Shown here: one piece after another, positions 445 through 40,909 of the stretch | Position numbering within the stretch: position 1 is the first letter of the stretch | How the letters are laid out: every line of letters begins with the position of its first letter | Virus record (IMG/VR): IMGVR_UViG_3300043775_002158 | Span: 41,375 to 105,374 of that record | DNA length: 64,000 bases | DNA from: a virus | Reading direction: 5' to 3' (one strand) | The notes under the pieces: generated by a model | What the model saw: the letters and a program-made list of their open reading frames with translations, nothing else | Database searches by the model: none | What the model was told of the DNA's origin: nothing | Translations under genes and position numbers: made by a program

Positions 445-477
445 ATCTTAGGTCGAAAACTCAAAAAAGTCGAAGTG

Positions 478-873
478 TGGAGACGAAGGGAGTCGAACCC
501 TTGTCTTTCCTGTTCAACAATAAATGACTACACGTTTATTCAATTGGTTCTCAATTGACAAATAGAAGGTTAATTACAGGAAACCAACAATACTGTCCCT
601 AACCGGATTTTCATGAGCCGTCAAGTTTGCTCCAACACTCTTGGGTGGTGTTACACCGTAAGGACTTCTGTTCCAAGGTTATATGTCCGTCGACCCGTGC
701 GTAGAGGCTAATCTAATTAGGCTGCTACTTTAGAAGTTGCAAGTAAACCTGCAATTTCCATTGTGTTGTAAACGTTGTCGTTTAATTTTCTTCACCGTGG
801 ATTAAAGTCATAGATGAATTCTGACTACGTGCCATTTACCCCTGATACCTGAAATCAAATCCAAGGCGTCCCC
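478..873 (-). ncRNA. ssrA: tmRNA; tag (A)DNVYNTMEIAGLLATSKVAA* at 779..717
   Basis: 5' GGGGACG pairs with 3' CGTCTCC-A with a G3:U70 wobble; T-arm AAGGGTTCGACTCCCTT; internal short ORF ending Ala-Ala-stop; 396 nt. Confidence 0.93.
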
Positions 874-1886: not shown

Positions 1887-2613
1887 TTATTTTTCCGTTA
1901 ATTTCAACTAAGTCAATAACGATTGGTTTATTTGTTGGTTCATATCCTGTAGTACAAATTGCGGCATTTACAAATAAAGTTTTATTCCCATATTGAACAC
2001 CATAACCTTCGTGAATGTGACCAAACACATTTACCAATGGATTTATTTCACCAATTCTATTTATTAAACATTCACATCCAACGTGAGTATTTGGTTGTCT
2101 CCAATTATTAACTAAATCACCGTATCCATTTGGTGGGGTGTGTGTAATTAATACATCGGTATCCTCAGGAATCCTATTCCATTTTTCCTGTAATTCAGTT
2201 CCTAATCTTGGTAAGTTAAATGCCCAATCATAGAACCAAGGTTGCCAAGGACTACCATAAAATTTAATAGGTCTTGAGAACTCAGGTGTTTCAATAGTAA
2301 AAGAACTATCCTCCAAATAAGTTATATCTGATTGTGATAAATTTTCAGGAGACATTAGAGGACTTAACCAATCATACATATTTTTATAAGAAGGTTTATT
2401 GATCCTTTCAAAACAATAATCATGATTGCCGGATATGAATATTTTTTGATTCCATCCACCTAAGTTTTGAAACCATTTTATAAAATCTTTAACATCTTTT
2501 TCACCACCTTTATTTGATAAATCTCCAGCATGAATTAGTATATCACCCTTTGGTAAGGGATGTTCCATATCATGATGAAGGCTGTGGGTATCAGATATAC
2601 ATACTAATCTCAT
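1864..2613 (-). CDS. calcineurin-like metallophosphoesterase
   Basis: DTH, HAGD, GNHD, THTPP, GHIHE motifs; TATATTTG only 4 nt upstream of ATG. Confidence 0.92.
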   Translation of the reverse strand: MRLVCISDTHSLHHDMEHPLPKGDILIHAGDLSNKGGEKDVKDFIKWFQNLGGWNQKIFISGNHDYCFERINKPSYKNMYDWLSPLMSPENLSQSDITYLEDSSFTIETPEFSRPIKFYGSPWQPWFYDWAFNLPRLGTELQEKWNRIPEDTDVLITHTPPNGYGDLVNNWRQPNTHVGCECLINRIGEINPLVNVFGHIHEGYGVQYGNKTLFVNAAICTTGYEPTNKPIVIDLVEINGKINAIYVEE

Positions 2614-2647
2614 AAAACAAATATACTAATTATTTTCGAATATACAT

Positions 2648-2674
2648 AAAAAAAGTCAGAATTTCTTCTGACTT
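2648..2674 (-). terminator. intrinsic terminator ending the large ncRNA
   Basis: AAGTCAGAA-gaaa-TTCTGACTT then U tract on the minus strand. Confidence 0.75.
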
Positions 2675-2685
2675 AATTTTGTATA

Positions 2686-3553
2686 GGCCGTATGGTTTTA
2701 CATACATTCACCACCACTTTGTTTTTCTAAACAAAGAAAATAAAACTCTGAGAATACAAGTTTTAACAATCGACTTAGGAACATTATTTGTTTCTTTCCC
2801 TTTCCACAACCTTTTGAGTTGTACCGATCAATGACGGTCAATTAGATTAACCAATCCTAAAGTCATCAGATACTCTTTTATTACTTATTACTCAACAAAT
2901 CTGCCGACCTGTTTCAACCTTGCGGGTTTAGAGAACTTTCTTAAAAATCATATTGGGATTGAGTCCCTTTATGGCCGTGAACCCCTCACGACTAAGTAGT
3001 CACCTGTCTCCAATGACTGACGAACACTTTTTCTTTTTATGTATGATTTTTATACCAAAATAAAAATTTAGTTTTCCGAATTGAGAAAGTAGTGGTTCGT
3101 CACCTAGCCAAGTTATCTTTTGAACAACTCGATACTAAACTACTCTCTGAAGTGTCCCCACCTCCATATTTTTGGTTTCCTTCGAGATTAAACCCTTGGT
3201 AGGATTTATTCAAGGACACTAACAGCACCACCTGTTTTTTGTCATACCTTCCATCTTACGATGCTACGGTTTTAAGACCACCATTGTATTGAATTACGCA
3301 ATAATAAAGTCGGATAACTATACTTCTTACATTAATTCTATGGATTATTCTTATTGATGTTCCCATCTCAACCAAACAACTCGGATTGCTTGGTCATCCA
3401 ACCCTTTCGCTACGGAGTTACCCTCACTACTTCAGGTTAAATGATATTCCACTTGTCTACTCGAGATCTCTTTCGAAATCCGCAACTTACCCCAACCAAG
3501 GGTTTGTCACTTTATCCCACTTTCGTGGTTTATTTTATTGACTATAGACGGCC
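2686..3553 (-). ncRNA. large structured ncRNA (~870 nt), GOLLD-like candidate
   Basis: No credible ORF; ends pair (GGCCGT 3553-3548 with ACGGCC 2691-2686); GNRA-type hairpins at 3517-3528, 3252-3263, 2916-2928; own promoter and terminator; near a tRNA cluster. Confidence 0.7.
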
Positions 3554-3604
3554 AATATTTTTATTCAAAGAACATTATCTTTTGGGTTATTCACCCTTCT
3601 TTTA

Positions 3605-3635
3605 CAAAGATAAGAAATGTTTTCTAATATTCAAA
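3605..3635 (-). promoter_or_regulatory. Bacteroidota sigma-A promoter TTTG-N19-TATCTTTG
   Basis: Exact -33/-7 consensus and spacing upstream of the large ncRNA. Confidence 0.75.
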
Positions 3636-3652
3636 ATATTTTTCAAAGTTTT

Positions 3653-4168
3653 TTATATTAATTTATTTCTTTTCCCGTTATTTCTTTCTCCAAAAAATAC
3701 ACTTGTTTGAGTTAATTTTTTATGTTCAGTTCTTAAAAAATCTAAACAATAGTAATTAAGTCGTAAAAATTCATATGAATCTTTGTTCCAATCGCCATTA
3801 TCAAAAACAATAATTGATTCTTTTTTTTTATTTTTATGTATAAACTTAACAAACTCAAATCTTGGTAAAAAACGAGGGTCATTATCAACTAAAAAAACAT
3901 CGGAAATTTTTACCAAATGTAAGAAAACTTTATCATTTATAATATTCACATCCATTAAATTAAGATTAACGTTTGTAATATTATTTTCTTTTATTTTATC
4001 TAATATTTTATCATACCATATAATATCGTTTTCAAATGAATTAACAATATTAAAATGATTTGAAAAAAATAATGTAGAAAATCCTGAACCTATTTCCAAT
4101 ATTGTTTTATTGATAAAATCTTGTTCATTTGTCCATTTAATAAAACCCTCGGAAAGTGCTGGTAACAT
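3653..4168 (-). CDS. class I SAM-dependent methyltransferase-like protein
   Basis: ILEIGSGFST motif I, SFEND, VFLVD, IIVFDN. Confidence 0.75.
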   Translation of the reverse strand: MLPALSEGFIKWTNEQDFINKTILEIGSGFSTLFFSNHFNIVNSFENDIIWYDKILDKIKENNITNVNLNLMDVNIINDKVFLHLVKISDVFLVDNDPRFLPRFEFVKFIHKNKKKESIIVFDNGDWNKDSYEFLRLNYYCLDFLRTEHKKLTQTSVFFGERNNGKRNKLI

Positions 4169-4374
4169 TATTTTGAAACTTTTTTAGATTTTTTAATCTC
4201 ATATGACCCACCTTGATCATGACCAACCTCAACATTCTCTTTTGGTGATTCAGTCACAACACCTTTCCATTCTGTTTTAGTGGTATATTTCCAAGTATTA
4301 CCCGCCATTTGATTGGCTTGAATATCGGATACTCTAATGACGTTTCCTGTTTTAGTATTTTTTAAACACTTCAT
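4168..4374 (-). CDS. hypothetical protein
   Basis: 68-aa ORF coupled to the next gene (stop/start overlap). Confidence 0.7.
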   Translation of the reverse strand: MKCLKNTKTGNVIRVSDIQANQMAGNTWKYTTKTEWKGVVTESPKENVEVGHDQGGSYEIKKSKKVSK

Positions 4375-4541
4375 ATTTTCTATTTTTAATAATATAAGAA
4401 TTTTTTTTTAAAAAACAAAATAATCAATAGGAACAGTTCCTTCACTTCTGTCTTGTAACTCCGTACCACTCAGCACTATTGATATTTGATGGATGAAAAA
4501 CATCTATTCTTCTTGCGGACTTCCATCGGAGTCCCATATCT

Positions 4542-5744
4542 TTATTTAATCTCACTAATTGGTAATTCACCATTCTTCACAAAAAGATCTTTCATATGAT
4601 CAACCGAACATGTATTAAAACAATAAACCATTTTATCCTCATCTTTTTTAGCATTTTCCCATCTACTTGCAAAAACCACTTCCAAATAATCACTATCTAA
4701 AATTTCTTGTAAAGAATAATTGTTTAAATTGATTTTATCTCTACCATAGTTATTTATTTCATTTCTGATTTGTAAAGTTTCATTATTTTGGAAATCACTA
4801 TTGTGCATAGTACCAACAAAACAACACGGCATAACGTTTCCTTTACAATCAACATATATCTCCATACCAGCTTGATGACAGGATTTACAATTTACTGCCT
4901 TACCTTTAAATCTTTCAGGAAATTCCAAATTCTTTAAATTATTATTTATTACATCGTCCCATTTTTTATCAATTGATTCTTTAGTTGGTTTATCATTTGG
5001 TAACCAAATTTTATCTTCACTGATTTCAAATTTTTTAACTGATTTGTTTAATCTAAATTGTTCAGTTGCAGGTTCTATTCTATAAATAAAATTTCCTTCT
5101 TCATCGTAAACCATTAAATCTTGATAAACATCTGGTACGTGTGTTTCAAACCCAAAAGGTCTTTTTGGTGAAAAGGTAACACCAATTTCTTGTGCTAATT
5201 TTTCAGCCTCACCCAATTGATGTTCATTATGTTTGAAAATTAAAAAGTCCCATATTCCCATACCTCCTGATTTGACATATGATTTCATATTTTTCATCAC
5301 ACTATCCCATTTTACATTTCTTCTATAAATGTGATTAGTGTCTTCTAATCCGTCTACAGAAAAAACTACATATCTACTATTAGTACAAGGTATTGAAAGT
5401 AGTTTACCCATTTTCGCCCAAAACTTTACATCCCTAATTGATCCGTTAGTGTTTATTTGAATTTTAGCATTTGAATTTTTTACAACATATTCTAAAATTT
5501 CATAAGCGTCTTTTGCCATCATCGGATCTCCGTTTGTACCACAGAATATCCAACTTTTACTTTTTTGAACAAAGTCTAATGGGAACCAATTTTTAAAACT
5601 TTCTAAAGAAACACTACCTAAATCTAATTCAGGGTTTACCTTCAAAGAATGATTAATATATCTCGGACAAAGTGGACAAGCAGCATTACAACGATTAGAT
5701 AATTCAACATGAACTAAATAAGTATTTTCATAATTCCATGTCAT
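4542..5744 (-). CDS. radical SAM protein with SPASM/twitch-like C-terminus
   Basis: CNAACPLC (CxxxCxxC), GDP, TNG, FSVDG, C-terminal GNVMPCC and CFNTC. Confidence 0.92.
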   Translation of the reverse strand: MTWNYENTYLVHVELSNRCNAACPLCPRYINHSLKVNPELDLGSVSLESFKNWFPLDFVQKSKSWIFCGTNGDPMMAKDAYEILEYVVKNSNAKIQINTNGSIRDVKFWAKMGKLLSIPCTNSRYVVFSVDGLEDTNHIYRRNVKWDSVMKNMKSYVKSGGMGIWDFLIFKHNEHQLGEAEKLAQEIGVTFSPKRPFGFETHVPDVYQDLMVYDEEGNFIYRIEPATEQFRLNKSVKKFEISEDKIWLPNDKPTKESIDKKWDDVINNNLKNLEFPERFKGKAVNCKSCHQAGMEIYVDCKGNVMPCCFVGTMHNSDFQNNETLQIRNEINNYGRDKINLNNYSLQEILDSDYLEVVFASRWENAKKDEDKMVYCFNTCSVDHMKDLFVKNGELPISEIK

Positions 5745-6019: not shown

Positions 6020-6033
6020 AATTTTAAATTTAG

Positions 6034-6105
6034 TATTCCCGACGGGATTCGAACCCGTATTACCTCCGTGAAAGGGAGGTGACCTAACCATTAGTCGACA
6101 AGAAC
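6034..6105 (-). tRNA. tRNA-Glu(TTC)
   Basis: Anticodon arm CCTCC-CTTTCAC-GGAGG, T-loop TTCGAAT; acceptor stem has three G:U pairs; no encoded CCA. Confidence 0.85.
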
Positions 6106-6222
6106 AGATCCCGTTTTTTTTCTACATTTAGCCCAAACACCAGTAGATCAGTATTTTGGGTTTTGACGCGAGAAGTCTACAAGGTTTCCCCATTAGACCG
6201 TTACCACGGGCAAACTCTACAG

Positions 6223-6310
6223 CGGAGAGAGTAGGATTCGAACCCACGGGCCAGTTTCCCGGCCTCCTGATTTCAAGTCAGGTGCAATAGACCAACTCTA
6301 CCATCTCTCC
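6223..6310 (-). tRNA. tRNA-Ser(TGA)
   Basis: CCTGA-CTTGAAA-TCAGG, long variable arm, acceptor GGAGAGA/TCTCTCC, G discriminator. Confidence 0.93.
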
Positions 6311-6504
6311 GTTGACACCTTTATTTATCCAACTCACAGGTGTCTTAGCTGTCCCCTTTCGGGTTAGGAATAATCATTTCGTCCTCACGAGGTCGGGGTG
6401 ATGTCCCCTGACGTTCTTCCTATACGTCAATGTACGTTTCCATATGGTTGTCAAACCATTTCTCATCATATTGGACATACTATTCGGTGACTAACCGAAT
6501 CGTG

Positions 6505-6578
6505 CGGAATGTACGGGACTCGAACCCGTGGGCTTCTCCGTGACAGGGAGACATGATAACCAACTTCACTAACACTCC
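6505..6578 (-). tRNA. tRNA-Asp(GTC)
   Basis: TCTCC-CTGTCAC-GGAGA, T-loop TTCGAGT, G discriminator. Confidence 0.92.
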
Positions 6579-6584
6579 GTTTTG

Positions 6585-6660
6585 TGGGTGAGTTTGGATT
6601 CGAACCAAAGACCTAAAGTTTATGAGACTTTTGCTCTAAAACCAGCTGAGCTACACACCC
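6585..6660 (-). tRNA. tRNA with CAT anticodon (Ile2 or elongator Met)
   Basis: AAAGT-CTCATAA-ACTTT; G1:C72 paired and no GGG/CCC anticodon stem, so not an initiator. Confidence 0.88.
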
Positions 6661-6752
6661 TATTAGTCTTTTCCTTACCTCTTAATAACCACATTGCCAT
6701 CCCGGTGTTACTGCCGGGTGCTTACCACTTGCGTGGAGTGATTATCACGTTG

Positions 6753-6825
6753 CGCTCCCTGAGGGTCACGATCCCCCGACTTCAAAATTAACAGTTTTGC
6801 GCTCTACCAACTGAGCTAAGGAAGC
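6753..6825 (-). tRNA. tRNA-Asn(GTT) with atypical T-loop
   Basis: CAAAA-CTGTTAA-TTTTG; T-loop ATCGTGA. Confidence 0.85.
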
Positions 6826-7087
6826 GTGTTTGATTCCAACCCAACTTAAGTTGCACCATCCGTGTCATGCACTGGTTAACAAAGTCCTCGTTGAGTTAGT
6901 TTCAAAAAGTTACAGGTTTTTCGTACCATCTATGTACATCATAACAGACATAGTCTGTGGTTACTTTTCGCTTAATGGTTAATTACTCCAACTTATAGTA
7001 ACTCTACTCTCACCGTTCTACATCTAGATTCAAACGGATAGTTGAGATTCATAGACAGTGGGGTCACACCACCGTCGTCACCTGTTG

Positions 7088-7160
7088 AGCCCAAACTCAG
7101 ACTCGAACTGAGGACCTAATCATTACAAATGACTTGCTCTACCAACTGAGCTATCCGGGC
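7088..7160 (-). tRNA. tRNA-Thr(TGT)
   Basis: AGTCA-TTTGTAA-TGATT, D-arm GCTCAGTTGGTAGAGC, T-loop TTCGAGT. Confidence 0.92.
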
Positions 7161-7200
7161 TTATTTTCTACCATTTTATGTCAAAGAACCACTTATTTTA

Positions 7201-7231
7201 CAAAGGTAATAAATATATATGAATATACAAA
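7201..7231 (-). promoter_or_regulatory. Bacteroidota sigma-A promoter TTTG-N19-TACCTTTG driving the tRNA cluster
   Basis: Consensus and spacing match, 40 nt upstream of tRNA-Thr. Confidence 0.75.
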
Positions 7232-9460: not shown

Positions 9461-12049
9461 ATGAAGAAACTATTAGTAGTATTATTTTTATTTATATCAT
9501 TTTTAGGGTTTGGTCAGTCGGTTTTGGCACCAGACCCTAAGTCATTTATTGTTAATACCACAGGACAAGATGCAAGTGGGTTTGAGTTAACTGGATTTAA
9601 TTCAACCGCAACTTTATTAGCATCGGTGAGTTTAGTATCACCACCAGCAGGAACAACATTCTATTTAAACACTTACACAGGTCTAACCGCAGCAAGTGGT
9701 TTCAATATGATTGGTAATAAAACTAAATTGGTGTTTACCGGAACAATGGCAAATATCAATACGGCATTGGCATCATTAAAAATTAACACAGGTTCTATTT
9801 CGGGTGATATTGTCATATCAGTCGCAGCAACTATAAATCCAACTGGTTTCTTTTACAATGGAACAAACGGACACTTTTATAGACCAATATCAACAGGAAC
9901 AAGCTATACGGGTGCAAGAGCAGCGGCATTAAATACTACATTTAAAGGACAGACTGGATATTTAGTAACAATAACTTCGGCAGATGAAGATGCGTTTGTA
10001 TTTAATAATGTACCACAAACAAACATTTGGTTTGCACTAACGGATGAAGAAACAGAAGGCCAATGGAAAATTGATGCTGGTCCTGAAAAGGGAACTTTAA
10101 TCAAAACATCAAACGGACAAACTGCGGGTAATATACAAGGACAGTACAATAACTGGGCACCTGGTGAACCAAACAATAGTGGTAACGAAGATTATGCGGT
10201 AACAAAATGGAACGGTTCTCAATGGAATGATTTACCGAATGGATTTAGTTGCCCTTATGTAATTGAATATGGAACTTGGACCAATCCTGATGATGCAACA
10301 TTTACCGAATTTTATACTAACAGTGTAGTTCATTCAAACGGAGAAACAATAAAAGCATTATTCAATTTTACATTTGGTGGAGCAACTGATAAAAGTAAAT
10401 TTTCAGCAAGATTATTTAATAGAAGCGATGCGACATCAACATGGGTAGCCGGTGGTTCTTATAAATCATTAAGTGGATTGGGTAAAGTATATCTTTCAAA
10501 TCAAATAGATACTGCAAAGATATTTTCAACCGCAATTCAATTAACGCCGGGTACAAATGATATGACACAATTTAGTTCTGCTGATATTGGTAAGGTCTAT
10601 AAACTAACAACAACTGGAGCAAGTGGTGGTGGATGGGGAACGGACATTTATACAAGTGACTCTTATATACCCGCTATGGCAGTTCACGCAGGAGTTTTAA
10701 CAATCGGACAAACAAAAGAAATTTATATTAAAATAGTTGAGGGAAAAAGTAGTTATTTAGGTTCAACCCGTAATGGAATCACAACGTCAGAATGGGGTGG
10801 ATGGGGATTGAGTTATCAATTTGTATCTCAACCATCTTCATACAAGGCAATATCATCACCTGGCCAAGTTGAATGGTGTGTGATATATGACTACGATGCA
10901 TCAAATCAAAGATATAGAGTTGGGATTGATAAGAGAGAATTTGATGGAACCAACGTATCACCAAATAATGTATCATCACTAAAATTATTTGATTTGTGGG
11001 ATGGAAATGTAACATTTGATAGTGAAGACATATATTGGGCAAATTATTGGATTAATACACCAACCCAATTTAATTTTACGGGTTCATCATTTTCATCATT
11101 TATAAGACAAGGCAATGGATTTTACGGAGTAAGTAGTGAGTTTACCTTTTCACAATTAGGTACATACAAACAACACAAAATGGAATTAAATGAATATGAT
11201 AATGTACAATTAAAAACATTATATAATAACATTGTAACAGTATCGGATGTTTATTTGGCATTTAAGGAATTATCTAATAAGGGTTTATTTGGTAATCAAA
11301 GTGGTAATGAATTTGGATATGGTATTCAATATATAAATGCAGATGTGGATGATAATGGTGTATTCAATGAAGTGGATACATATAAATTATTACAAAATTT
11401 AACGGGTGTAAATGATTTAGTTAGCAGTTATACTTTGGATAATACTATAAAAGTAATTCCAGACTCAATCTATAATTTAATTGGTAAATCAACATGGAGT
11501 TCATTTACATCATACAAAGGTAAATCATATTCATTTAGTTTATTGGATAATGTGTTGAATTACAATTACAATTTATCTGTGAGTTGGAAAGGTGATGTGA
11601 ATTTATCACATTCAGCAACACCTCCTTCAAATGGTATAACAACAATGTCGGTTAGAACATCAATGAGTACACCGATATCAAACGAAATAAATTCATCAAT
11701 TATGTCCGAAATTGTGGGAGATAGTGTTTATGTATATATTACAATAGACCCATTACAACAAGAATTGGTGGGGACACAGTTTAAGTTAAATTACGATAAT
11801 GATTTATTAAAGTTTAATAATGTAATATATAAAACAAAAGGATTACCAACTAACTATGCGACGGACAAAGGGAATTATATTAATTTAGGTTCTCTAATAA
11901 CGGATGGTGGAACTTTAGATAATACCACTGAATATAAATTATCATTTACAACAAAAACAAAGTTGGAGAATATATTCGGTTTAATTTCGGTTGGGTTAAT
12001 GGATGCAGTAAACAAAAGTGGTAGAACATTAAAAGTAATAATGAAATAA
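9461..12049 (+). CDS. exported multidomain adhesin: C-type lectin, LCCL, dockerin-like and cohesin-like domains
   Basis: YNNWAPGEPNN...WND (CTL); WGTDIYTSDSYIPAMAVHAGVL (LCCL); NADVDDNGVFNEVD; LVGTQFKLNYDNDLLKF. Confidence 0.75.
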   Translation: MKKLLVVLFLFISFLGFGQSVLAPDPKSFIVNTTGQDASGFELTGFNSTATLLASVSLVSPPAGTTFYLNTYTGLTAASGFNMIGNKTKLVFTGTMANINTALASLKINTGSISGDIVISVAATINPTGFFYNGTNGHFYRPISTGTSYTGARAAALNTTFKGQTGYLVTITSADEDAFVFNNVPQTNIWFALTDEETEGQWKIDAGPEKGTLIKTSNGQTAGNIQGQYNNWAPGEPNNSGNEDYAVTKWNGSQWNDLPNGFSCPYVIEYGTWTNPDDATFTEFYTNSVVHSNGETIKALFNFTFGGATDKSKFSARLFNRSDATSTWVAGGSYKSLSGLGKVYLSNQIDTAKIFSTAIQLTPGTNDMTQFSSADIGKVYKLTTTGASGGGWGTDIYTSDSYIPAMAVHAGVLTIGQTKEIYIKIVEGKSSYLGSTRNGITTSEWGGWGLSYQFVSQPSSYKAISSPGQVEWCVIYDYDASNQRYRVGIDKREFDGTNVSPNNVSSLKLFDLWDGNVTFDSEDIYWANYWINTPTQFNFTGSSFSSFIRQGNGFYGVSSEFTFSQLGTYKQHKMELNEYDNVQLKTLYNNIVTVSDVYLAFKELSNKGLFGNQSGNEFGYGIQYINADVDDNGVFNEVDTYKLLQNLTGVNDLVSSYTLDNTIKVIPDSIYNLIGKSTWSSFTSYKGKSYSFSLLDNVLNYNYNLSVSWKGDVNLSHSATPPSNGITTMSVRTSMSTPISNEINSSIMSEIVGDSVYVYITIDPLQQELVGTQFKLNYDNDLLKFNNVIYKTKGLPTNYATDKGNYINLGSLITDGGTLDNTTEYKLSFTTKTKLENIFGLISVGLMDAVNKSGRTLKVIMK

Positions 12050-22224: not shown

Positions 22225-22467
22225 TTAGTTTAATCTTTTGTGGAAACCGATGTTGTAGGTATGTTTTAACCAATTGAGTGACAAATATATACCACATATT
22301 TTGTTTTTCCAAATAGAAACGTGAGCATCGGGAAAACAAGTTTCAAAATAAAAATAAATAAAAGGTAAAGGATATAATGACCATTGGTTTTTTTGTAAGT
22401 TAGCGTGGAATTTCATCTTTGGTTTTGGATTTACGGACTCAAAAAACGAAATAATAAATTCACTCAT
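22225..22467 (-). CDS. hypothetical protein
   Basis: 80-aa ORF coupled to the upstream kinase. Confidence 0.55.
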   Translation of the reverse strand: MSEFIISFFESVNPKPKMKFHANLQKNQWSLYPLPFIYFYFETCFPDAHVSIWKNKICGIYLSLNWLKHTYNIGFHKRLN

Positions 22468-23348: not shown

Positions 23349-25361
23349 TTATTTTTTTGAAATTAATAAATTTTCGTCCTTATATTTCAAAGTATACTGT
23401 ACATTTTCTAAAATATTACCTTTTAAAATTTCTTCACTTAAGAAATCTTCACAAAGATTTTGTATGATACGTTTTAACGGACGTGCACCATATTCTTCTT
23501 GTGAATTTAATTCGTAAATTCTATTAATAACAGTTTTATCAAAATTAATTTTGTAATTCTTTTCAACTAAACGTTTATTTAATTTACTCATTTCAATTCC
23601 AATAATTTTTCTTAATGTTTCATCATTTAATGCGTTGAATAAGATAATATCATCAATACGATTTAAAAATTCAGGATTGAATTGTTGTTTTAACGCCTTT
23701 TGAATCATTGTCTTTCTAACTTCATATTGTTGTTCTTCACTTGAAGATGTTTTAAATCCAACACCTCCACCTAAATCAGATACACGTTTGGCTCCTACGT
23801 TAGAAGTCATGATAACAATGGTATTTGTGAAATTAATTTTTCTACCAAATGAATCTGTTAAATGTCCTTCATCTAAAATTTGAAGCAGGATATTGAATAC
23901 ATCCTTATGGGCCTTCTCAATCTCATCAAATAAAACAACAGAGAATGGGTTATTTTTAATCTTCTCAGTCAACTGACCTCCTTCATCATAACCAACATAA
24001 CCTGGAGGTGAACCGATTAATTTAGATACATTATGTTTCTCCATATATTCACTCATATCAACACGAATGATTTTATCGGGATCTCCAAATAATGTTTCGG
24101 CAATTGATTTAGCAAGATATGTTTTACCAACACCCGTTGATCCGATAAAGATAAATGAACCAATTGGTTTGTTTGCTTCTTTAATACCAACACGATTTCT
24201 TCTAATTGCCTTAGAGATAGTTTTAACCGCCTCGTCTTGACCAATTACTTTAGAAGTTAATGTTTCTTCTAATTGTAATAATTTTTTAGTTTCTTTCGTA
24301 TCAAGTTTAGTAATAGGAACTCCCGTCATATCACTAATAATGTCATAAACATCATCTAACGAAACGGGTGTTTTATTATCTTTTTGTTTTTCTGTCCATT
24401 TTAATTTTTCATCTTCCAGTTTTGTTGTTACTTTTCTTTCTTCATCACGAAGTTTTGCCGCTTGTTCGTAATTTTGATTTTTTACAACTTGGACTTTCTT
24501 TTCTTTAATAACGTCAATTTCCTTTTTTAATTTTTCAATTACTTCAGGAATTTTAGATGATACTCTTTTTTCAGAACCTAATTCATCTAATACATCAATT
24601 GCCTTATCAGGAAATTGTCTATCAGTAATATAACGTCCTGAAAGTTTAACAATAGTTTCTAATACACCATCTTCGTAACTTACTTTATGAAAGTCTTGGT
24701 ATGATGTTGTTAAGTTTTTAAGAATTTCTAATGTTTCCTCTTCAGTTGGTTCTTGTAAAACTATTTTTTGAAAACGACGAACTAATGCAGCATCTTTTTC
24801 AATGTGTTTTTTAAATTCATCAAATGTTGTTGCACCAATACATTGTAATTCTCCACGTGCTAATGCGGGTTTCAAAATATTTGCGGCGTCCATCGCACCA
24901 CTTGCATTTCCCGCACCAACCATAGTATGTAATTCATCAATAAAGATAATTACGTTTGGTGCTTCTTGTAATTCGTTAATAATTGCTTTAATTCTTTCTT
25001 CAAATTGACCACGATATTTTGTGCCGGCAACTAATGAAGTTAAATCTAAAGACATAATACGTTTGTCTAAAAGATTTGAAGGACAATCTCCTTTATAAAT
25101 CATTAATGCTAATTTCTCAACTAGTGCTGATTTACCCACACCAGCTTCACCAACAATTACTGCGTTGTTTTTCTTTTTACGAGAAAGAATTTGAGCAATT
25201 CTTTTTACCTCTTTATCCCTACCAATTACAGGATCAATTTTACCCTCTTCAGCCATCTTAATAAGATCACGTGAGAAATTGTCTAAGATTGGTGTATTTG
25301 ACCCTTTTCTAACCTTCTTGGGGTTTGTGGTTGGTCCGTCCTCAAAAAAATCTACTGACAT
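23349..25361 (-). CDS. clpC: ClpC-like Hsp100 AAA+ ATPase lacking the N-terminal repeat domain
   Basis: Two Walker A motifs ([16 protein letters not shown]), UVR-like M-domain [10 protein letters not shown], ClpP-docking GVGF loop. Confidence 0.92.
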
Positions 25362-25384: not shown

Positions 25385-25415
25385 CAAACATAACATAAAT
25401 CGAACTAAAAACAAA
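25385..25415 (-). promoter_or_regulatory. Bacteroidota sigma-A promoter TTTG-N19-TATGTTTG for clpC
   Basis: Consensus and spacing match. Confidence 0.7.
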
Positions 25416-40845: not shown

Positions 40846-40880
40846 AAAAACCCTCGAGAAATCGGGGGTTTTTTATTTTT
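40846..40880 (+). terminator. intrinsic terminator after the capsid gene
   Basis: AAAAACCCTCGA-gaaa-TCGGGGGTTTTT. Confidence 0.85.
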
Positions 40881-40909
40881 GGTATATTCTAAATAAAGTT
40901 GTATATTTG
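40878..40909 (+). promoter_or_regulatory. Bacteroidota sigma-A promoter TTTG-N20-TATATTTG
   Basis: Consensus match 4 nt upstream of ATG 40914. Confidence 0.7.

Follow-up and report, generated by a model that had tools for sequence, protein, structure and literature searches.

A GOLLD RNA gene in an uncultivated, very large freshwater phage

The segment at positions 2739–3557 on the minus strand of the 64 000-nucleotide stretch of DNA analysed here (the window) is, with a probability of about 95%, a gene for GOLLD RNA, carried by an uncultivated, very large phage from fresh water. GOLLD, a giant RNA known from phages, builds hollow cages (PMC12286853, PMC12990946); the family dates from 2009, when lake metagenomes yielded it, and its structure was solved by cryo-EM in 2025. 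The main outcome is a settled annotation: the stretch is an ordinary env-38-type member of a known family, and calling it GOLLD was correct.

Identity and domain structure

The whole window was scanned against Rfam 15. GOLLD (RF02032, gathering score 150 bits) was matched at 2745–3147 (−) with 296.4 bits and an E value of 9e-84, the match spanning model positions 1–416 of 416 without truncation, and one GOLLD copy was found in the whole IMG/VR record to which the window belongs. The Rfam model takes in the conserved 3′ domain only, which here (2745–3147) holds the L14 loop and an A/U-rich variable linker; the conserved core as a whole (2739–3557) has a length of 819 nt. An earlier interpretation made from the letters alone (the sequence-only reading) had proposed a structured RNA at 2686–3553, GOLLD-like or of a new class. 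Its GOLLD option is confirmed by the full-length match and by a 5′ half that forms a covarying GOLLD 5′ domain, and its boundaries are kept in part, the core being 2739–3557 and position 2686 marking where a 3′ tail hairpin specific to the clade ends. The stretch had also been called ORF-free and richer in GC than its flanks, and is both: no ORF of at least 60 aa lies in 2686–3553 (the longest overlapping ORFs are of 43–51 aa) or on the minus strand of 2640–3640, and the GC content is 0.36–0.39 inside the RNA stretch versus 0.21–0.30 in the flanks.

The 5′ domain (3148–3557, minus strand; about 410 nt in 19 helices) is supported by covariation and by homology to env-38 judged by eye. A blastn search of GenBank phages with the whole unit gave just two partial matches, and both proved to be full GOLLDs in the Rfam scan: the 410 nt 5′ domain is conserved in the 'uncultured phage' entries LR745206 (634 kb) and LR756502 (642 kb), which also carry full 3′ domains (287 and 275 bits). 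A 16-nt word from the 5′ half retrieved 53 IMG/VR loci, 38 of which hold full-length homologues; these gave 33 distinct sequences including the window, at 60–99% identity to it. Relatives are labelled below by locus (L0xx), and the alignment of the 33 5′ domains is referred to as A2. Complete GOLLDs of the env-38 type are common in very large freshwater phages, the 634 kb and 642 kb genomes included, and no mention of GOLLD in such phages was found in the literature searched.

RNAalifold applied to A2 gave 101 pairs in the 19 helices, 67 of them with compensatory changes. In this fold 98.0% of the cells are paired, compared with 36–41% after sliding the partners by 1–3 columns, the covariation score is 0.54 compared with 0.08–0.09 for the slid partners, and none of 500 shuffles reached the observed values. 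Helix 1, in which GUCUAU (3544–3549) pairs with GUAGAC, covaries. The several GNRA-type hairpins noticed before on the minus strand are present, four being listed: CCAC-GAAA-GUGG (3517–3528) and GAUG-GGAA-CAUC, the stems of which covary, CAUC-GUAA-GAUG, and CCC-GCAA-GG (2918–2926). A GUAA hairpin is inserted in the 5′ domain of the window clade (A2 columns 316–344). The complementarity of the 5′ and 3′ ends (GGCCGU/ACGGCC) that had been noticed before exists in the letters but does not exceed chance: RNAduplex gave −12.4 kcal/mol versus −9.6 ± 2.4 for shuffled tails, with 13% of the shuffles as good, the pairing is absent from relatives L046, L009 and L004, and its GU overlaps helix 1 (3544–3549).

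The env-38 sequence was taken from supplement 1 of PMC12286853 and compared with A2 by eye. The blocks GGCCGC.UAUGGUCGU.AAAUAAA, GGAUAAAGUG, GUGAGGGUAAC, CAAUAAGAAUAAC and GGGUGGUGCCG are common to both, and since the construct shares long blocks with A2 from its first nucleotides on, the 5′ domain of the window appears by eye to be of the classical, structurally solved env-38 type. A search of the env-38 supplement for exact 5′-domain motifs found none, env-38 differing at those positions. As a side observation, the conserved 5′-domain hairpin CAG-GUGGUG-CUG (3223–3234, minus strand) occurs in env-38 as GGGUGGUGCC, and a look-alike, UGGUGGUG, lies at 2707–2716 (−) in a single-stranded part of the 3′ tail.

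That the stretch belongs to a new class of large RNA, or is a ROOL, a group I or II intron or an RNase P RNA merely resembling GOLLD, is suggested by size and context alone and is extremely improbable: the Rfam scan gives GOLLD and nothing else above threshold, which refutes this reading and with it the new-class option. When the scan was extended to E values of up to 1, a single chance match of 13.5 bits appeared beyond GOLLD; the ROOL model matched neither at its gathering score nor at E up to 1, and ROOL, the introns, RNase P and a tRNA-like identity are excluded at this sensitivity. A decayed protein-coding region, to which the overlapping ORFs of 43–51 aa might be credited, has next to no probability either; the substitutions in the 33 homologues are compensatory across helices and the RNA family is matched in full. 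The sequence-only reading had itself offered decayed coding as a possible refutation, which fails on these data.

Elements of cage assembly

The env-38 RNA, from a marine metagenome, is 833 nt long, with a 5′ part (1–420), a 3′ part (421–833) and a disordered linker (497–538), and forms a D7 14-mer held together by bridges, in which the cage is capped by the 5′ domain (PDB 9MEE; Kretsch et al., 2025, PMC12286853). The pseudoknot of the Rfam GOLLD model corresponds to the intermolecular bridge B7, between L20 and J13/15 (PMC12286853). In the window RNA this long-range pairing is formed by AGUCAUUGGA (3009–3018, minus strand) and UCUGAUGACU (2861–2870, minus strand) over 10 bp; among the 33 sequences 98.8% of its cells are paired, compared with 24–52% in slid controls, and both sides change in nine of the ten pairs. 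The A-rich L14 loop, which makes the A-minor bridge B6 in env-38 (PMC12286853), is present as UUCAAAAGA at 3115–3125 (−) and aligns to UCAAAAG of the RF02032 model.

Two adjacent hairpins at 2899–2926 (−), whose helix numbers were assigned from position, resemble L21a (CCC-GCAA-GG, 2918–2926) and L21b (GUC-GGCA-GAU, 2899–2908). Each loop contains a self-complementary GC; that of L21a is GC in the window clade and CG in L002, L003, L014 and L006, and that of L21b stays GC. A GC/CG switch in the L21a loop has been reported for bridge B8, and L21b provides B9 in the env-38 type (PMC12286853). An A/U-rich, poorly aligned internal linker lies at about 3020–3085. GOLLD linkers are variable and poorly conserved and sometimes enclose a tRNA; no tRNA was found inside that of the window by Rfam at E up to 1 or by a tRNA gene search.

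Because these bridge elements (the B7 pairing, L14 and the L21a and L21b loops) are all present, the RNA is predicted to form an env-38-like cage. It would fold into two domains, the 5′ one a cap and the 3′ one a ring, and, protein-free, would assemble itself into a hollow 14-mer of D7 symmetry that encloses the A/U-rich linker. The number of 14 subunits is an extrapolation from a homology of about 65–70% identity, since the stoichiometry of GOLLD varies with the helices present.

The likeness to env-38 comprises the two-domain layout (819 versus 833 nt), the common 5′-domain blocks, the A/U-rich linker, the L14 A-run, the 10 bp pairing, loops of the L21a and L21b type, a terminal loop of the L27 type and tRNA genes nearby in both. 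Identity, about 65–70%, was estimated via relatives L005 and L023, which are nearly identical to the first 45 nt of env-38. The window RNA differs in its GUAA hairpin insertion, in its 3′ tail of two hairpins plus terminator, in a tRNA array lying 2.5 kb off (that of env-38 is adjacent) and in its source, a Bacteroidota-type phage from fresh water. The GOLLD of Streptococcus agalactiae (700 nt; 12-mer, PDB 9L0R; PMC12990946) shares the family and the core of the 3′ domain and lacks P9, P11a–c and P21b, whereas the window RNA keeps the second L21-type hairpin and a full-size 5′ domain. Mycobacterial and mycobacteriophage GOLLDs (Morgado et al., 2020, cited in PMC12286853 and PMC12990946) also sit within tRNA islands, but some of them have a tRNA inside the linker and none was detected there in the window RNA. 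ROOL, an 8-mer cage, is likewise a large phage RNA near tRNA islands that builds an RNA-only cage; its sequence and fold are unrelated and it is shorter than the window RNA.

Transcription unit and RNA in metatranscriptomes

A Bacteroidota-type promoter was located by pattern match at 3605–3635 (−), with a −33 element TTTG (3632–3635), a 19-nt spacer and a −7 box TATCTTTG (3605–3612), where the sequence-only reading had placed one. The count of such matches in the window is not above chance (seven versus 6.65 expected), and five of the seven lie upstream of genes in the correct orientation. The promoter of GOLLD is credible because of its position and its conservation in relatives, not because of this count. 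The −7 box with the letters following it (TATCTTTGTAAAAGAA) recurs in L043, L056, L044, L053, L029, L012 and L004, with a one-base variant in L051 and L055, so that nine close relatives share this context, also in cases where they diverge farther upstream. A scan for σ70 promoters gave eight sites versus 8.3 expected and is uninformative for this type of host.

Transcription would start near 3598. The 5′ leader (3558–3597, minus strand) comprises a hairpin, GGGU-GAAUA-ACCC (3584–3596), followed by GTTCTTTGAA (3564–3573), a copy of a motif, GTTCTTTRAA, that here lies between promoter and GOLLD. At the other end a clade-specific 3′ tail (2686–2744, minus strand), folded with RNAfold, consists of hairpin T1 (2717–2736), an invariant UGGUGG and hairpin T2 (2686–2712). 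In L046 and L009 one pair of T1 has changed in a compensatory way, three types of tail retain UGGUGG, and one RNA contig spans the tail. No tRNA was found in the tail by Rfam at E up to 1 or by ARAGORN; in relatives that are more distant its place, directly after GOLLD, is taken by a tRNA or tRNA-like gene. In L003 (2663–2736), L019 (4635–4707), L031 (3109–3179) and L048 (7566–7637) ARAGORN reports a 'tRNA-???' with an abnormal anticodon loop right after GOLLD.

An intrinsic terminator follows at 2646–2674 (−), with a 9 bp stem, a GAAA loop and a run of seven U (hairpin plus U run at 2674–2653), in agreement with the terminator noticed earlier. Five different hairpin-plus-U-run sequences occupy this place (in the window clade, L051, L046/L009, L004 and L006), so that the structure of the terminator is kept and its sequence is not. 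Host RNA polymerase would start near 3598 and stop near 2646; the primary transcript would measure about 950 nt, and its 40 nt leader is probably trimmed.

About a third of the sampled words of 2500–3800 were found in six metatranscriptome runs. For four of the six, from four river or freshwater studies, RNA contigs were compared with 2000–4400. The word depth reaches from hundreds to about 15 000 over 2810–3538 and is 0–2 in the flanking protein genes (2000–2647 and 3620–4400), and since these flanks serve as a silent-stretch control, carry-over of DNA does not explain the signal. The contigs mix strains and speak to presence and to contrast with the flanks, not to strand, ends, timing or true level; the contig-bare stretches (2648–2809 in three runs, and 3539–3619) are not readable as transcript ends. 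The 5′ leader is barely covered, a weak observation, and the contig of one variant runs on from the tail into tRNA-like sequence. This lends moderate support to the RNA being abundant and discrete, and to no finer statement. Standing out strongly from its flanks in river and lake libraries, it is probably a major stable phage RNA there. In L. brevis, the level of GOLLD RNA rises during phage lysis.

The earlier suggestion of independent transcription is supported by this stand-alone promoter-to-terminator unit and by contigs that cover the RNA and not its flanks. GOLLD might instead be cut from a long precursor that includes upstream genes or tRNAs, GTTCTTTRAA marking the cut and the promoter being incidental. 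From the tRNA array (7160) through to the tmRNA (477) every gene is on the minus strand, no terminator lies between the ORF at 3653–4168 and GOLLD, in relatives the motif also precedes tRNA and tmRNA genes, by 3–45 nt, GOLLD abuts tRNAs in many of these relatives, one variant's contig passes from the tail into a tRNA, and the promoter pattern is not enriched window-wide. Such processing is nonetheless considered unlikely: the nine close relatives, which differ in their upstream sequence, preserve the −7 box together with its surroundings, the tRNA array is preceded by a similar arrangement of promoter (7201–7231) and motif (7179–7189), and the RNA contigs leave 3620–4400 uncovered. Transcription from its own promoter remains the preferred reading for GOLLD. 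A comparably low probability is given to a GOLLD that assembles in a manner unlike env-38, for instance as a 12-mer or as a cage altered by the tail, or that stays a monomer in the cell. Members of the family contain ten, 12 or 14 subunits (PMC12990946), and the window clade has its own GUAA hairpin insertion and 3′ tail; however, hairpins like L21a and L21b are both present, the review PMC12990946 links the 14-mer form to the presence of P21b and P11a–c, and the 5′ domain aligns with sequences of the env-38 type.

Genomic context, leader motif and possible role

The window is part of a 105 kb IMG/VR virus record with a CheckV completeness of 32%, from which the complete phage genome is probably about 330 kb. 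Genes for a large terminase, a portal and a major head protein mark the contig as that of a phage. The phage origin and the proximity to tRNAs expected by the sequence-only reading are both borne out, six tRNAs lying at 6033–7160 and a tmRNA at 477–873. The surroundings of GOLLD on the minus strand include, besides these, a radical-SAM protein, two small ORFs of unknown kind, a metallophosphoesterase and a glycosyltransferase. The genes for the radical-SAM protein, the metallophosphoesterase and the glycosyltransferase, the last of family 2, are interleaved with the RNA genes, 1194–2613 (−) and 4542–5744 (−) being among the sites.

The promoter type, together with a Bacteroidota-like tmRNA tag in relative L007, suggests that the host belongs to the Bacteroidota. 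A second promoter of this type, TTTG-N19-TACCTTTG, lies at 7201–7231 (−) directly upstream of the six-tRNA array, and further ones precede ORFs at 22282–22313 (−), 25385–25415 (−) and 40878–40909 (+). The tmRNA (477–873, minus strand; 77.7 bits in Rfam) was given the unusual tag DNVYNTMEIAGLLATSKVAA by ARAGORN. The ARAGORN tags of relatives, seen over L043, L029, L046, L017, L019, L034, L018, L024 and L047, are of 24–25 aa and end in YAVAA, YAIAA, YALAA or LAVAA; the reading of the tag is uncertain, ARAGORN picking a short frame (ATSTVAVA) in some close relatives.

Side observations of this study that are new are a shared leader motif, GTTCTTTRAA, and a recurring order of tmRNA, tRNA-Met, GOLLD and tRNA array. 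In all 38 full-length homologues the motif precedes the core by 16–112 nt and shares its strand; it is often preceded in turn by an AAC-rich stretch and followed by WTATTG. For 35 of 47 distinct copies a stable-RNA gene follows within 120 nt downstream (26 GOLLD, eight tRNA and one tmRNA), compared with 4% of random positions. Copies occur just downstream of host-type promoters, 3–112 nt before GOLLD, tRNA or tmRNA genes and always on their strand. In the window a one-mismatch copy at 7179–7189 (−) lies between promoter and tRNA array. As a general phage promoter the motif was rejected, with two exact copies in 64 kb versus 1.1 expected and no match for a longer form. Other copies are at 3989 in L016, 1263 and 2661 in L017, 8052 in L018, and elsewhere.

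The order tmRNA, tRNA-Met, GOLLD, tRNA array recurs in L017/L027, L018, L019, L034 and L024; L007 has tmRNA, GOLLD and array, with no tRNA-Met detected, and in L047 the tmRNA and a tRNA-Leu come after GOLLD. The arrays are large, with up to 26 tRNAs. No gene was detected in the roughly 600 nt that separate tRNA-Met from GOLLD in L018, L019 and L034, nor in gaps of 350–750 nt after GOLLD in relatives; these stretches may hold further RNAs.

We tentatively propose that GOLLD could be part of a stable-RNA island conserved among huge phages that probably infect Bacteroidota, the shared leader (AAC-rich stretch, GTTCTTTRAA, WTATTG; downstream of host-type promoters and 3–110 nt before mature 5′ ends) acting as a common processing or transcription signal and tying the cage functionally to the supply of tRNA and tmRNA. 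Likewise, the neighbourhood hints at a possible role of the cage in translation. As a guess, the cage might hold tRNA, tmRNA or ribosomal components, or shield them, and in this way influence translation in the infected cell, because one relative after another has GOLLD grouped with tRNA-Met, tmRNA and tRNA arrays; gene neighbourhood is the sole basis of this link. This fixed company of tRNA-Met, tmRNA, tRNA arrays and leader motif offers a concrete handle on what the cage does.

Elsewhere in the window a 670-aa ATP-dependent protease is encoded at 23349–25361 (−) (phrog_4871, E value 1e-243). The product of 9461–12049 (+), 862 aa long, combines C-type lectin and LCCL domains and is unusual for a phage.
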